The notes: generated by a model from the letters alone, not told the origin. Positions 12,981 to 18,199 are shown, numbered from the stretch's first letter. The stretch is 64,000 bases of DNA from a virus (IMGVR_UViG_3300012933_000155:32001-96000); one strand, 5' to 3'. Made by a program: numbers and translations.

Positions 12981-12995
12981 ATGGGTAAGTAACTA

Positions 12996-13024
12996 TTGAC
13001 ATAATCCTATGGGTGTGTTATAGT
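12996..13024 (+). promoter_or_regulatory. Sigma70-type promoter of tmRNA gene
   Basis: TTGACA-17nt-TATAGT. Confidence 0.85.
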
Positions 13025-13095
13025 ATGAGTTATTGCTGTATGAAGCAAAGAGAAAAGTGTTCTGGACGCGGGTTCGACTCCCGCCAGGTCCACCA

Positions 13096-13180
13096 GCAAG
13101 AATACTGTTCGCACCAAATAATTGCGAAAAAATAGTGGCGTAGTTCTAGACTATGGATCATTAGCAGTATTCTTACTAAT
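13096..13180 (+). other. tmRNA intervening segment
   Basis: aagaatactg (13098-13107) pairs with cagtattctt (13165-13174), closing the spacer between CCA and the +1 G. Confidence 0.8.
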
Positions 13181-13327
13181 GGGCCTGTCATGGTTTCGAC
13201 AGGGCAACAAGTAAACAAGTGGACAGCAGGGTAATGTGAAAGCCCTTAGGATTGGGGGTAAGAGTACAGTAATGTCATGTCAATATGATATCAGTATTTC
13301 CCGGTCGCAGAAGCAAAAAACTTAAAT

Positions 13328-13360
13328 GCAAATGACGAAAGTTACGCATTGGCCGCTTGA
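13328..13360 (+). other. tmRNA tag reading frame ANDESYALAA*
   Basis: gca aat gac gaa agt tac gca ttg gcc gct tga taa. Confidence 0.92.
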
Positions 13361-13404
13361 TAAAAGCGTCCTGGGGTAAGACATACCTCGCAACAGAAAC
13401 TCAG

Positions 13405-13430
13405 AAAAGGCTCTTCGGAGCCTTTTTCTT
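13405..13430 (+). terminator. Rho-independent terminator after ssrA
   Basis: aaaaggctc-ttcg-gagcctttt followed by T-run. Confidence 0.9.
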
Positions 13431-13477
13431 TGTCAACGTAATGTAAGGCAAAGGCGTTGTATATATAAGGAGCTTAT

Positions 13478-13612
13478 ATGCAACTAACTAAACCCAAAGA
13501 ACATTCCGACGACAAGCCTAGCAAGTACGAGACAATTTTTCTAATTAGAACTTGCTCACGAGGTTGCCCTAATTGCGACAAGAAACGCATAGGAACATGT
13601 CAGTGTAAGTAA
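13478..13612 (+). CDS. 44-aa Cys-rich peptide (not in ORF track)
   Basis: AAGGAG SD; ...TCSRGCPNCDKKRIGTCQCK. Confidence 0.6.
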   Translation: MQLTKPKEHSDDKPSKYETIFLIRTCSRGCPNCDKKRIGTCQCK

Positions 13613-13621
13613 CCTTTTTTG

Positions 13622-13649
13622 TTGCACTAGTCCTAGAATAATATATACT
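13622..13649 (+). promoter_or_regulatory. Sigma70-type promoter
   Basis: TTGCAC-16nt-TATACT; ATG 7 nt downstream. Confidence 0.55.
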
Positions 13650-13655
13650 AGCACT

Positions 13656-13964
13656 ATGAGTAACGAAACAGCTAAATTTATCAACAGCCAACGCCGTCAC
13701 AAAACGGACGTTCACATTGCTAGACAAGTGAAGATTGCCAGACAAAGTTTGTCACATGACACTTCTAAAGTTGCTAGACAACCACACCGTTTAGCAAAAC
13801 GACATGCTATGGATTGCGGTAATCCAAAGTGCTATCTATGTGGTAACCCACGCAAAACTCACAAAGACAAATTAACAGCGCAAGAAAAACGTTTGTACCA
13901 AGATGTAGATAAGACTACTGATAGACATTCAAACGGACTTCCGTCAACAGACATTGATGAATAA
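13656..13964 (+). CDS. Basic hypothetical protein with CGNPKCYLCGNPR motif
   Basis: Putative Zn-binding motif; own promoter and terminator. Confidence 0.7.
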   Translation: MSNETAKFINSQRRHKTDVHIARQVKIARQSLSHDTSKVARQPHRLAKRHAMDCGNPKCYLCGNPRKTHKDKLTAQEKRLYQDVDKTTDRHSNGLPSTDIDE

Positions 13965-13967
13965 TTT

Positions 13968-13990
13968 AGGGCACATAGGTGCCCTTTTTT
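13968..13990 (+). terminator. Rho-independent terminator
   Basis: agggcac-atag-gtgccct followed by T-run. Confidence 0.8.
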
Positions 13991-14089
13991 GTTGCATAAC
14001 CTAATATATACGTATATAATGTATCTCATAGAGCACTAAGTAAATGTTCTGAGTGCTCTACTCAAGTGCTCTAGTATAGAAAGAAGGAA

Positions 14090-14455
14090 ATGTCAAATTT
14101 AGGTTGTTTTACTTGTTTAAGTTGTGGAAAAGTTAATCCTATCAAAGGTCACTCATACACTAACAAGTACTGTAATAATAGTTGCCAACAAGAACACCAA
14201 CGCAGAAACAAGGCGTTTGAGAATGTTCAGAAATGGAAAGAATCAGCTACGCCACAAGCGTGGGCAAAGATTCCCGAGTGGGTAAGACAGTACTTGATTA
14301 ATCAAAGAGAACATCGTTGCCAGGAATGTGATAACACACATCATAACGGTCTAGCTATCCCATTAGATGTAATCTATAAAGATGGTGACAGTTACAACAA
14401 CAAAGAAGATAATCTAATGTTGATATGCCCTAATTGCAAGTCACAAAGAAAATAA
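14090..14455 (+). CDS. HNH-endonuclease-like zinc protein, probably degenerate
   Basis: CxxC, YCNNSCQ, CQEC...LDVIYKDGDSYNNKEDNLMLICPNCK; HNH His positions replaced by Y and K. Confidence 0.65.
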   Translation: MSNLGCFTCLSCGKVNPIKGHSYTNKYCNNSCQQEHQRRNKAFENVQKWKESATPQAWAKIPEWVRQYLINQREHRCQECDNTHHNGLAIPLDVIYKDGDSYNNKEDNLMLICPNCKSQRK

Positions 14456-14479
14456 TTCATTAACATAAAGGAAATTAAA

Positions 14480-15025
14480 ATGAAAACAATCGGCGATAAA
14501 ATCACAAGTTTTGCAGTCACAGGCGTTAAGCCAGGCGCACTCACACCAGATGGCGCATTCGAAACAATTACTGAAAAGAGTTTTGAAGGCAAGTGGAAAG
14601 TAATTGTTTACTACCCAAAGGACTTCACATTCGTGTGCCCAACTGAAATCGTAGCATACGACAAATTGAATGGCGACTTCGCAGACCGCGATGCTGTTCT
14701 AATGATTGGCTCTACTGATAATGAATTCTGTAAGTTGGCATGGCGTAATGCACATGAAGACTTGAAGAAGACTAACTCATGGTCATTCGCAGACGTGGCA
14801 CGTGATGAGAACAGCTTGGCAGAACAATTGGGTATCTTCTATGGTCCAGCAGGTGCGGCACTTCGTGCAACATTCATCGTTGACCCAGACAACATCATCC
14901 AACACGTTACAGTCAACAACTTGGACGTTGGTCGTAACCCAGACGAAGCATTGCGTGTACTTGACGCATTGCAAACTGGCGAGTTGTGCCCATGCTCACG
15001 CCCAATCGGTGGAGAAACATTGTAA
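14480..15025 (+). CDS. ahpC: Peroxiredoxin AhpC
   Basis: YYPKDFTFVCPTE; RATFIVDP; LQTGELCP. Confidence 0.95.
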   Translation: MKTIGDKITSFAVTGVKPGALTPDGAFETITEKSFEGKWKVIVYYPKDFTFVCPTEIVAYDKLNGDFADRDAVLMIGSTDNEFCKLAWRNAHEDLKKTNSWSFADVARDENSLAEQLGIFYGPAGAALRATFIVDPDNIIQHVTVNNLDVGRNPDEALRVLDALQTGELCPCSRPIGGETL

Positions 15026-15543
15026 TGACTGCTTGGGTAGACGCACTTAAAGAGTCTAGTATTCCTGACTATGCTAAGGATACTAAACTAAACATTGACG
15101 CTGTAATTAAGCGTAGTACTCTACCTGTTGAAGAAGCGGAAGCTGTTGCCCTCGCGGCAGCTTTTGCTACTGGCAACAGTAAGTTGTGGACTTGGATGGA
15201 AAGTCAAATTGAAAACAAGACTGAAACACAAGCCGCATTAACAGCAGGTGCATTGATGGCACAAAACAACATGTGGTATCCATTTGTTGAAATGGCTGAC
15301 GATGAGAACTTGAAGGGCTTGCCCGCACAACTTCGCATGAACGCTATCACAACAAGCGGTGGCACAACTAAAGAACGATTTGAAGCATATTCATTGGCTG
15401 CAAGTATCGTTGGTAAGTGTCACTTCTGTGTGAAAGCACACTACGAAGGATTGAAGAAGATGGGCTACACTGTAGAACAACTTCGTGATATCGGTCGCAT
15501 TGCAAGTGTCATTAATTCAGTAGCAAAAGTGGTAGCAAACTAA
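15025..15543 (+). CDS. ahpD: Alkylhydroperoxidase AhpD
   Basis: EAYSLAASIVGKCHFCVKAH (CxxC); TAATG coupling to ahpC. Confidence 0.9.
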   Translation: MTAWVDALKESSIPDYAKDTKLNIDAVIKRSTLPVEEAEAVALAAAFATGNSKLWTWMESQIENKTETQAALTAGALMAQNNMWYPFVEMADDENLKGLPAQLRMNAITTSGGTTKERFEAYSLAASIVGKCHFCVKAHYEGLKKMGYTVEQLRDIGRIASVINSVAKVVAN

Positions 15544-15544
15544 A

Positions 15545-15937
15545 ATGGCAAACATGGCAGAGTACTTTGAAAAGAATCGTTATCATGGCTCATATGAGTT
15601 CGGTGAACGAGTTTTCGGTTATTACAATAAGATTCCTTTCATTGGCTCTGTCGGTAGTGACAGTGTAAGGAGTATGGATGAAGGTCCTATCATCACTGTC
15701 ACACTTGATTTGCCCATTAGTGTTGATGGACAATCAAAAAATGTTATAATTGTAAAACACAAAGACATTAAATCTTTGTTGAGAGATTACGATGCGTCGG
15801 GAGTTCCAAAGGCCGGAGCGACTGATTCTAAACCAGTAGGTAGTGGGTTCAATTCCCATCCGACGCACCAAGAACAACCAAAGTCTAATAGTAAATCACT
15901 GTTAGAAAACTTAAAGAAACTTAAAGGTAAAAAATAA
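15545..15937 (+). CDS. Hypothetical protein whose 3' third overlaps a tRNA gene
   Basis: Open through 15794-15870; stop overlaps next start (TAATG). Confidence 0.65.
   Translation: MANMAEYFEKNRYHGSYEFGERVFGYYNKIPFIGSVGSDSVRSMDEGPIITVTLDLPISVDGQSKNVIIVKHKDIKSLLRDYDASGVPKAGATDSKPVGSGFNSHPTHQEQPKSNSKSLLENLKKLKGKK
15794..15870 (+). tRNA. tRNA with CUA anticodon (putative amber suppressor)
   Basis: Acceptor GCGTCGG/CCGACGC, A73, encoded CCA; D stem GTTC/GAGC with GG in loop; anticodon loop TT-CTA-AA; 5-nt variable loop; T arm GTGGG-TTCAATT-CCCAT. Non-canonical G8, C14 and A31:C39. Confidence 0.8.
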
Positions 15938-16182
15938 TGGATATGGATAATGCGGCAGTTTTCTTAGCCGGTACAATCTTATATGCTATTGGTTTGATTG
16001 TGATTCTAGCAGCCACTATCTTCGCAAACAACTTGATTCACAAATATTGGAAATCATTTGGCTGGTCATGGTTCCCTGCATTCTTGCAACACGATGCACC
16101 GAGATTCATGTCACCGGAAGAAGCTGCAAAGATTGACCCATCGGTAGATCCAATCAGCGGTGAAAAGCATAAACCAAAATGA
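15937..16182 (+). CDS. Small membrane protein
   Basis: N-terminal hydrophobic segment. Confidence 0.7.
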   Translation: MDMDNAAVFLAGTILYAIGLIVILAATIFANNLIHKYWKSFGWSWFPAFLQHDAPRFMSPEEAAKIDPSVDPISGEKHKPK

Positions 16183-16203
16183 TTTGTACGGGGCACATGC
16201 CCC

Positions 16204-16211
16204 TATAAATA
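16204..16211 (+). promoter_or_regulatory. T4-type late promoter
   Basis: Exact TATAAATA. Confidence 0.75.
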
Positions 16212-16238
16212 CAATGTCATAACTTAAGGAGAACCAAA

Positions 16239-16814
16239 ATGACACAACAATAGATTGAATACGCATGTAAAGATGTAGTGTTCCACTTTAACAAGGCACA
16301 CTTACAAGACGAGACCATTCCAATGTGGGTCTTAAAATCACATGGAGAAACCTTTTATGTTAATCATGTGGAATGCAATGTTCCGTGGAGTACGAAAGAG
16401 ACCCCTGATAACCCAAGTACAAAAGGTAGCATCAAAGTCAAGAATGTATTATTGACGATTGATCCAGACAACAACGCAAACTTAACCAAGCTAACTGTTT
16501 TTGATAAAGTACGATTACGCAACCAGAAGATGGGCATTACTCGTATTATGTTCTTGCCTAACTCTGACATTCACACTGCATTATTAGAAGACAAACTAAA
16601 GCATGGACCAATGAAACGAATTACTGCACCTTGTACTACAGCATACATTGTGTGTGACTTGCTTGATAAAGCAGAGGCTACATTCGCTACATTGAAGTAT
16701 GACACTTTCAGAGTACTACAACCTAACGATAGCTACTACCAACGATATGACGAAGACAAAGACCACATCAGTCCTGACTACTCGGATAAAGACACCCCGT
16801 ATGAGTACAGTTAA
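16239..16814 (+). CDS. Hypothetical protein with in-frame TAG at codon 5 (readthrough candidate)
   Basis: AAGGAGA SD, then ATG ACA CAA CAA TAG ATT GAA TAC GCA TGT AAA GAT GTA GTG, in frame with the tracked ORF at 16278. Confidence 0.7.
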
Positions 16815-17944: not shown

Positions 17945-18199
17945 ATGCAAATACAAACTTCTCTTGACTGGCAAGCTGTTCACGCTGAATTAAGAACTCA
18001 GATTGGACAGCTTCCTTATAATCCCGATTTGCGTAGAATGTTGAACAACATTAGTAACATGGTGTCTGAGTTAAGTCAAGCAGAAGTTGAATCAAGGCGT
18101 ATCAATAAGCCAGAGTACAATAAACTAAAGGTCGATAGTATTAATAAAGCTATCGACCACTTAGAGAAACTTTTGCTTATCGCAAAGTTAATGAGTTAA
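17945..18199 (+). CDS. Helical hypothetical protein
   Basis: 84 aa directly after promoter. Confidence 0.7.
   Translation: MQIQTSLDWQAVHAELRTQIGQLPYNPDLRRMLNNISNMVSELSQAEVESRRINKPEYNKLKVDSINKAIDHLEKLLLIAKLMS

Follow-up and report, generated by a model that had tools for sequence, protein, structure and literature searches.

A position-fixed amber codon and a phage tRNA-CUA as a candidate one-codon translational switch in jumbo phages

Phages that have recoded TAG in bulk ("code 15" phages, among them crAss-like, Lak, and other phages) carry their own suppressor tRNAs, and the recoding has been proposed to regulate gene expression (bioRxiv 10.1101/2021.08.26.457843; PMC9523058). Genes for tRNAs with the anticodon CUA (tRNA-CUA) are also known from Xanthomonas phage XacN1, a jumbo phage of standard code, for which the authors read through terminal ambers and found no target (PMC5852040). 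A coherent feed-forward "leak dampener" engineered from a suppressor tRNA works in Escherichia coli (Ho et al., PMC7969014), and a two-piece transfer-messenger RNA (tmRNA) is known from Methylophilales phage Melnitz and other aquatic phages (PMC9004378). Here, we describe a 64,000-nucleotide stretch of viral DNA (IMGVR_UViG_3300012933_000155:32001-96000; referred to as the window, with positions counted from its first letter) that carries on one strand a permuted tmRNA, a tRNA-CUA gene lodged in a coding sequence, and a gene with an in-frame TAG at codon 5. We estimate a probability of roughly 0.7 that this UAG is read by the phage tRNA-CUA and thereby gates the gene, an arrangement that, judged from the DNA, resembles a translational switch of natural origin worked by a single codon.

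Precedents exist for phage suppressor tRNAs that accompany bulk recoding of TAG, for orphan ones in jumbo phages of standard code, and for permuted phage tmRNAs. For one N-terminal amber codon at a fixed position, paired with a tRNA of its own, a full-text search of the literature found no description. Like the code 15 phages, the window phage has a tRNA-CUA, an in-frame TAG in a phage gene, and a depletion of TAG as terminator. Unlike them, it has one such gene with one TAG at a fixed position in the leader, coding density and open reading frame (ORF) lengths are unchanged, and the tRNA is physically tied to its candidate client gene. The carriers are environmental jumbo phages of ~350 kb and a Rhizobium phage, in contrast to the gut code 15 phages. 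With XacN1, the window phage shares a tRNA-CUA and the standard code, whereas here there is an evident target, the N-terminal TAG in a neighboring gene. Suppressor tRNAs in standard-code phages have been a puzzle, for which this module offers a plain target across a very large group of uncultured phages. The central features are as follows:

16226..16253, + strand: the gate, comprising the Shine-Dalgarno sequence AAGGAG (16226-16231), ATG at 16239, leader M-T-Q-Q, and TAG at 16251-16253 (codon 5)
16254..16814, + strand: body of the gated gene, 186 codons past the TAG, open to the TAA at 16814
15794..15870, + strand: tRNA with anticodon CUA (amber suppressor) and encoded CCA, found by ARAGORN and by the Rfam tRNA model (45.3 bits)

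The gated gene begins ATG ACA CAA CAA TAG, with a spacing of seven bases from AAGGAG to ATG. A preliminary description of the window, made from its sequence alone, had reported a gene with TAG at codon 5, and all of its parts are present: the Shine-Dalgarno sequence, the start, the amber codon, and an open frame to 16814. Translation would begin at this ATG and reach the UAG after a few codons, where either host release factor 1 (RF1) would release a four-residue peptide or the phage tRNA-CUA would insert a residue and a 191-residue protein would be made. Across relatives, the product made without read-through would be a peptide of only 2-9 residues. The next in-frame start after the gate is a GTG at 16278, which has no Shine-Dalgarno sequence. 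No read-through-stimulating RNA structure was detected around the TAG, where the fold was no better than those of shuffled sequences (z of -0.54).

Conservation of the gate was surveyed in a first round of 12 IMG/VR loci and a second round of 80 loci, 78 of which have the core motif HFNK of the gated protein. The DNA reads TAG at the gate position in 12/12 of the first-round loci, and in the second round the first in-frame stop upstream of the HFNK motif is TAG in 78/78 loci. In each of these 78 the TAG lies 10-11 codons ahead of the motif and follows a Shine-Dalgarno sequence, an ATG, and a leader of 1-8 residues (MK, MA, MS, MTQQ, and others); a TAA, a TGA, or a sense codon at this position was found in none of them. 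Directly behind the TAG comes ATT (71 loci), ATC (5), or ATA (2). Since it varies only among synonyms for Ile, this codon appears to be read as an elongation codon rather than as a start, and the distance from the Shine-Dalgarno sequence to it changes with the length of the leader, which likewise argues against initiation there. The base directly 3' of the TAG is A in all 78 loci, in agreement with the classical context rules for efficient amber suppression.

The same codon recurs in the cultured Rhizobium phage RHph_I1_18, where an unannotated M-S-E-F-M-TAG is followed by a 73-codon version of the domain, with a tRNA-CUA located 36 nt downstream of it. The TAG in the window is, therefore, neither a read or assembly error nor unique to this genome, and the cultured relative makes the gate directly testable. 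In all, the protein family of the gated gene comprises 1310 clusters, with 358 IMG/VR matches and one cultured Rhizobium phage. Homologues in protein databases fall into entries of 190-191 amino acids (aa) with Q at the gate and entries of 179-180 aa that begin just past it. The two Q-bearing entries that were looked up match their DNA only "with_TAG=Q"; the Q at the gate is therefore a convention of the gene caller.

A tRNA-CUA accompanies the gated gene in nearly all relatives. ARAGORN found one on the same strand within 8-kb flanks in 71/78 gated loci, and covariance models added three that ARAGORN had missed or that are clipped at a contig end, for 74/78; two of the remaining four loci have almost no upstream sequence. 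The tRNA commonly lies 100-1500 nt upstream of the TAG. The survey of relatives proposed in the preliminary description thus bears out the coupling of tRNA-CUA and N-terminal TAG, the TAG being universal in the family and the tRNA standing alongside the gene in 74 of 78 loci. In an alignment of 48 tRNA sequences, G1-C72, C2-G71, G3-C70, A73-CCA, and the anticodon loop YU-CUA-AA are invariant, and 11 of the 16 base pairs show compensatory double changes, a pattern pointing to a functional tRNA under selection. The family shows sequence hallmarks of an elongator tRNA: a cloverleaf supported by covariation, a 7-nt anticodon loop, U33, and a purine at position 37. A73 and C2-G71 differ from the corresponding positions of E. 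coli tRNA-Gln. A search for the identity of the tRNA by similarity to co-resident phage tRNAs yielded no clear parent. In the window tRNA and its nearest relatives (77-nt forms), position 8 is a G, the D arm is longer, and A31-C39 is mismatched; more distant members are canonical. The complete relative G001 has 45 tRNAs in a single array at 225-241 kb; its tRNA-CUA and tmRNA lie away from that array, at 362-363.5 kb, adjoining the gated gene.

Two further cultured phages were inspected for this tRNA. In Sinorhizobium phage Phosso (L112, PV764938, 446731-448100), the ~1.3 kb behind a tRNA-CUA contains stops in each of the three forward frames and has neither annotation nor an Rfam match. Agrobacterium phage Atu_ph07 was set aside, its best match to the tRNA model having the anticodon UCA and a different acceptor stem. 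That match (L111, MF403008, 430713-430787) is an unannotated, opal-suppressor-like UCA tRNA, and the gene behind it has no early TGA.

The pattern of the tRNA family was found at 120 or more viral loci, 65 of them with the gated gene, which always has the TAG. Three complete genomes of 168-214 kb (G004, G005, and G007) have the tRNA pattern and no homologue of the gated gene; in the positive controls G002 and G003, the same search recovered the gene "with 1 TAG." In L270, a single short contig (JGI 3300044681), the gene order is AhpD-like gene, homologue of 15545-15937 (at 672-1034), membrane protein, and homologue of 17945-18199; this locus lacks the gated gene as well as the next two genes. 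There the tRNA has decayed: its 3' half is deleted in frame, its anticodon region is altered, and it no longer matches the tRNA model. Judged by this distribution, the gene depends on the tRNA, whereas the tRNA can do without the gene. Given such one-sided dependence, a broader function of the tRNA during infection is probable.

Stop-codon use was examined across the ORFs of at least 60 aa (n = 148, by heuristic calling) in the 135,078-bp IMG/VR contig from which the window is taken. TAA ends 99 of them, TGA 48, and TAG one, compared with ~5% ending in TAG in complete genomes of the phage group; the probability of one or fewer TAG ends in 148 at a 5% rate is 0.004. The avoidance of TAG that had been noted in the window holds, as the single TAG-ended ORF lies outside it. 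Reading TAG as sense changes little: the contig gives 148 ORFs at a density of 0.955 under the standard code versus 144 at 0.948 with TAG as sense, and G001 gives 466 versus 454 ORFs at densities of 0.916 and 0.926, respectively. Only one case of a Shine-Dalgarno sequence, ATG, early TAG, and long ORF occurs in the contig, and in G000, G001, G004, G007, and 22 tRNA loci without the gene, no other amber-gated genes were found above the rate of TAA and TGA controls. These results agree with the earlier proposal of single-gene gating without a genome-wide code change, unlike the bulk TAG-recoded phages, since reading TAG as sense merges almost nothing. The module is a possible first step on the road that has been proposed from the standard code to recoding. 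The TAG-ended ORF itself occupies 132216-133073 of the contig (window coordinate 100216 onward, beyond the window's end), with its TAG in "aaaTAGgagaaaattATG"; the gene after it is in the same frame, and amber read-through would fuse products of 168 aa and 113 aa.

The tRNA and its surroundings raise the question of how the two genes are transcribed. In the window, the tRNA lies within a coding sequence (CDS) that also contains a promoter candidate:

15545..15937, + strand: 130-codon CDS with an 80-aa beta-rich N-terminal domain, a tRNA-encoded segment, and a basic helical tail (SLLENLKKLKGKK)
15723..15750, + strand: sigma-70-type promoter with extended -10 (TTGATG-16-TGtTATAAT) inside this CDS, 43 nt upstream of the tRNA, from a consensus scan

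The motif TTGAnn-16-TATAAT is found in 12/12 loci where the 80-aa gene runs into the tRNA. Among 58 unique relatives, 60% have a promoter match of at least 10/12 upstream of the tRNA, versus 2.4% of control windows. In most of these promoters the -10 element ends 8-10 nt before G1 of the tRNA, and transcription would therefore start at or next to the mature 5' end. Some relatives, among them L043, L045, L065, and L089, have a perfect TTGACA-16/17-TATAAT ending 8-9 nt before G1; initiation there would itself form the 5' end of the tRNA, with little or no leader for RNase P. The preliminary description had proposed that the suppressor is supplied by excision of the tRNA from the CDS mRNA; this is not required, because the conserved promoter at 15723-15750 can drive the tRNA directly.

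In 22/71 loci, the start of the tRNA lies within 260 nt upstream of the TAG, and in ~20 relatives 25-50 nt separate the tRNA from the beginning of the gated gene, a gap that leaves no space for separate control; in those relatives the two would share one transcript. No terminator was predicted between the tRNA and the ATG at 16239 in the window. The following element lies in this interval:

16190..16211, + strand: hairpin GGGGCA..TGCCCC followed by TATAAATA, upstream of the gated gene, identified by sequence and fold and kept in the close relatives L005, L006, and L009

The motif TATAAATA was tried as a T4-type late promoter and rejected, because it is not enriched (3 in the window versus 4.9 expected, 6 in the contig, and 17 in a complete 364-kb relative). 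The suggestion that the gated gene is a late-promoter gene serving timing is therefore not supported, also because many relatives place the gene 25-50 nt behind the tRNA in a unit of early type.

Under the proposed mechanism, a host-type (sigma-70) promoter would drive the tRNA, and many relatives have the gated gene immediately after it, where one transcript would cover both. The result would be a coherent feed-forward AND gate, in which the protein needs both an abundant transcript and a tRNA that has matured, been charged, and accumulated. We give this feed-forward logic about even odds. It would make the module a natural counterpart of the engineered feed-forward gate. As in the leak dampener of Ho et al., a suppressor tRNA would be expressed jointly with a gene that has a nonsense codon near its start, and a longer transcript would release the tRNA. 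The leak dampener, however, is engineered and releases its tRNA by ribozyme, whereas the phage module is natural, release would depend on host RNases or on initiation at G1, and any benefit is conjectured from the arrangement.

The body of the gated protein is strongly conserved, with a mean column identity of 74% and protein identities of 56-99% among relatives. An AlphaFold2 (AF2) model with a predicted local distance difference test (pLDDT) score of 81 shows an N-terminal beta domain and a C-terminal ferredoxin-like domain. A Foldseek search against the PDB gave no match at an E value of 0.001 or better, VIA-align returned only ferredoxin/ACT/RRM-like matches with Z of ~5 to residues 85-169, and scores in an ESM Atlas search stayed below 0.9. 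An exhaustive phmmer search with the N-terminal domain gave 133 clusters, which fall into three architectures; all of these are small and lack known partners. In Phosso and Atu_ph07, the domain forms the C-terminal part of a 176-aa protein that has no TAG. By these models, the beta domain of the gated protein is novel and occurs alone or at the C terminus of other small phage proteins.

Several observations weigh against a gate worked by the tRNA. The gated protein has no match in Pfam, PHROGs, or NCBIfam and no recognizable function, which leaves the purpose of the gate to conjecture. The Q of the database entries, being a convention of the gene caller, does not name the inserted residue. Relatives still end ~5% of their ORFs in TAG; suppression there therefore cannot be very efficient or harmful. 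The gated gene is present in 43 of the 65 tRNA loci that have at least 2.5 kb of downstream sequence, about a third lacking it, and in the window an 81-aa gene and the hairpin separate the tRNA from the gated gene. Finally, the loci surveyed are phylogenetically related, so that the counts overstate their independence; the unique tRNA sequences number 61.

The CDS around the tRNA is itself unusual. As had been reported, the CUA tRNA lies inside an open ORF: it occupies 15794-15870 of the ORF 15545-15937, the frame runs through it without a stop, and its G1 is the first base of a codon. The start of the CDS overlaps the stop of an AhpD-like gene, and its stop overlaps the next start (TAATG). 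In eight related loci, the tRNA likewise begins at a codon boundary and the frame is kept through it. The tail motif (S/T)LL(D/E/N)xLKxLKG stays in frame despite tRNA lengths of 74 or 77 nt and differing spacers, and its Leu, Lys, and Gly codons vary synonymously among the eight. That the length of tRNA plus tail is divisible by 3 is true by construction and was not used as evidence. Homologues of 15545-15937 either have ~130 aa with the tRNA segment and basic tail or stand alone at ~80 aa without it. The L270 homologue has 120 aa, with the tail present and the tRNA absent; the tail therefore belongs to the protein, and the tRNA sits in its linker. L270 has also lost the -10 element of the tRNA promoter, and the basic tail has been kept. 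In an AF2 model of the CDS product, the N-terminal domain is folded, residues 80-110 have pLDDT below ~50, and the tail is a helix; fold searches with the 80-aa domain gave only weak CAP-Gly/SH3-like matches.

In four further loci, the 80-aa gene runs into the tRNA in another frame, and altogether the tRNA is embedded in 12/72 tRNA-bearing loci. Embedding is, by this comparison of loci, specific to a lineage and maintained within that of the window, and the ORF running through the tRNA is probably translated. The -10 of the promoter at 15723-15750 is spelled by the codons for V-I-I (GTT ATA ATT). A tRNA gene in frame within a protein gene, with a promoter spelled in codons, is an unusual case of overlapping information, and a full-text search of the literature found no description of a tRNA gene held in frame inside a CDS.

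Exactly two RNA genes were found in the window by ARAGORN, the tRNA-CUA and a permuted tmRNA:

13034..13431, + strand: circularly permuted tmRNA, acceptor/T-arm/CCA piece first, found by ARAGORN (13003-13451) and Rfam
12996..13024, + strand: sigma-70-type promoter of the tmRNA gene (TTGACA-17-TATAGT with TG), matching 11/12 consensus positions, predicted by consensus match alone

The two-piece tmRNA of the preliminary description is real by both ARAGORN and Rfam. The model tmRNA_permuted (RF04321) scores 107.3 bits against a threshold of 47 over 13034-13360 (model positions 1-213), and beta_tmRNA (RF01850) scores 103.5 bits over 12987-13429. The tag frame at 13328-13357 reads ANDESYALAA and is followed by TGA TAA, and a UUCG hairpin with a T-run lies at ~13407-13432. 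SmpB (PF01668) was not found in the 135-kb contig, itself 39% complete. Host SmpB would normally serve a phage tmRNA. Like that of Melnitz, this tmRNA is a permuted ssrA that follows an early-type promoter and has a tag of ANDxxxALAA type, and both sit in large, aquatic, myophage-like genomes. Unlike in Melnitz, no glutamine riboswitch was detected in the window with Rfam, and an amber suppressor tRNA and its candidate client gene are neighbors of the tmRNA here, an association not mentioned in PMC9004378.

Among the 78 gated loci, 36 carry a permuted tmRNA on the gene's strand at a distance of up to 8 kb, and in most of these the tRNA stands free. Counted by the tRNA pattern, the tmRNA is present in 20/65 loci with the gated gene versus 5/55 without, and it also occurs in complete genomes that lack the gene. 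By these counts, the tmRNA is a frequent but separable neighbor of the gate and the tRNA. Suppressor tRNAs send ribosomes past stops to the 3' ends of mRNAs, a situation with which SsrA copes (Ueda et al. 2002, Genes Cells 7:509, listed in PMC3985003). Together with regulation through the stop-less mRNA of arfA (PMC10107115), this offers a mechanistic rationale for the company of tmRNA and suppressor tRNA, and for a CDS whose stop codon can be lost by RNA processing; the two cases come from E. coli as host systems, to which the phage module is likened by analogy. On that analogy, the tmRNA would most likely handle ribosomes at mRNA 3' ends, a by-product of amber suppression. We regard a functional link between tmRNA and suppressor tRNA as a tentative possibility; such a tie in phages, if true, would be new.

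Other explanations of the early TAG are less probable than its reading by the tRNA. The ATG, leader, and TAG could form a leader peptide or a minigene like lambda bar, with the body translated by reinitiation or from an internal start and with the tRNA-CUA having another job. Such an arrangement would fit the leaders of two to three codons (MK, MA, or MS, then the stop) that follow a strong Shine-Dalgarno sequence in many relatives, the GTG at 16278 and the M or V starts at the same place in relatives, and the complete genomes that carry the tRNA without the gated gene. A bar-type minigene, however, would allow any stop and any frame, whereas 78/78 loci have TAG as the stop and a body that shares the leader's frame. 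The restriction of the next codon to Ile synonyms, its varying distance from the Shine-Dalgarno sequence, and the lack of such a sequence at 16278 also speak against it, as do the presence of the tRNA-CUA with the gene in 74/78 loci and the decay of the tRNA in L270, where the gene is absent. We consider a minigene of this kind improbable. A nonsense mutation, an assembly error, or a pseudogene would be favored by the single base that separates TAG from the Gln codon CAG and by the uncharacterized state of the gene; with the same codon at the same place in 78 independent assemblies and a cultured phage, ahead of a body with so high a column identity, the chance of this is negligible. It is also very hard to credit that the UAG requires a non-standard amino acid inserted by the tRNA. 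The tRNA is labeled tRNA-Pyl by ARAGORN and its invariant acceptor top, GCG/CGC-A, suggests a dedicated identity set, but ARAGORN applies the Pyl label to any CUA anticodon, and the tRNA folds into an ordinary class I cloverleaf, its D-loop being normal and its discriminator base A73. Moreover, the site lies in a variable leader outside the conserved core, and no synthetase-like or pyl-like gene was seen among the neighbors scanned, in a scan that included no search aimed at pylS or pylBCD.

Two broader models concern the tmRNA as well. In the one put forward in the preliminary description, the tRNA is cut from the 15545-15937 mRNA, the message left without a stop is rescued by the phage tmRNA, and the late gated gene is switched on. 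The tRNA does lie in frame in a CDS with a protein-conserved tail, so that processing would yield a non-stop fragment; non-stop mRNAs are a classic tmRNA substrate, regulation via a stop-less mRNA has a precedent in arfA (PMC10107115), and the tmRNA is 2.3 kb upstream of the tRNA on the same strand. Nevertheless, transcription from the conserved promoter within the CDS can supply the tRNA and leave the CDS mRNA intact, an embedded tRNA is seen in 12/72 loci as opposed to a tmRNA in 36/78, and, as noted, TATAAATA is not enriched. With tmRNAs mostly beside free-standing tRNAs and also in genomes without the gated gene, rescue of a stop-less CDS cannot be their general reason, and the model in this full form is unlikely. 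In the window's lineage, a rescue of this kind is possible as an extra: long read-through transcripts would be translated into the full protein or be processed at the tRNA into a stop-less fragment that the tmRNA may also handle. The other model, likewise unlikely, joins tRNA-CUA, tmRNA, and gated gene into one "termination-reprogramming" unit. Early tRNA-CUA would force read-through of UAG stops of the host or of competitors, and the tmRNA would clear stalled ribosomes and tag their products. The gated protein, made in proportion to read-through, would sense or tune this state, for example via RF1, tRNA, or the ribosome, and the tRNA in the CDS would act as a second switch by which a transcript becomes either protein or tRNA plus a tmRNA substrate.

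The contig that contains the window has a G+C content of 40% and is incomplete, at 39% by CheckV. Complete relatives of the window phage measure 352-364 kb, and the contig is therefore a fragment of a jumbo phage. A nucleotide search against cultured phages found no close relative at the DNA level; the large terminase of the contig is ~50% identical to those of Pseudomonas phage PA5oct, Sinorhizobium phage Phosso, and Agrobacterium phage Atu_ph07. Genes for a release factor or a peptidyl-tRNA hydrolase were not found in the 135-kb contig. Between and around the elements described above are two further genes:

15937..16182, + strand: gene for an 81-aa predicted membrane protein, between the tRNA and the gated gene, from ORF calling, with a homologue in L270
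14090-14455: small gene for an HNH endonuclease whose CxxC pairs resemble a zinc ribbon, lying after the tmRNA and before the AhpC gene

The membrane protein matched no family in Pfam, PHROG, and NCBIfam searches. Directly upstream of the tRNA-bearing CDS, at 14480-15543, the phage carries a pair of genes for an AhpC/TSA peroxiredoxin and a CMD (AhpD-like) protein, and the AhpD-to-CDS junction of the window is also retained in L270.

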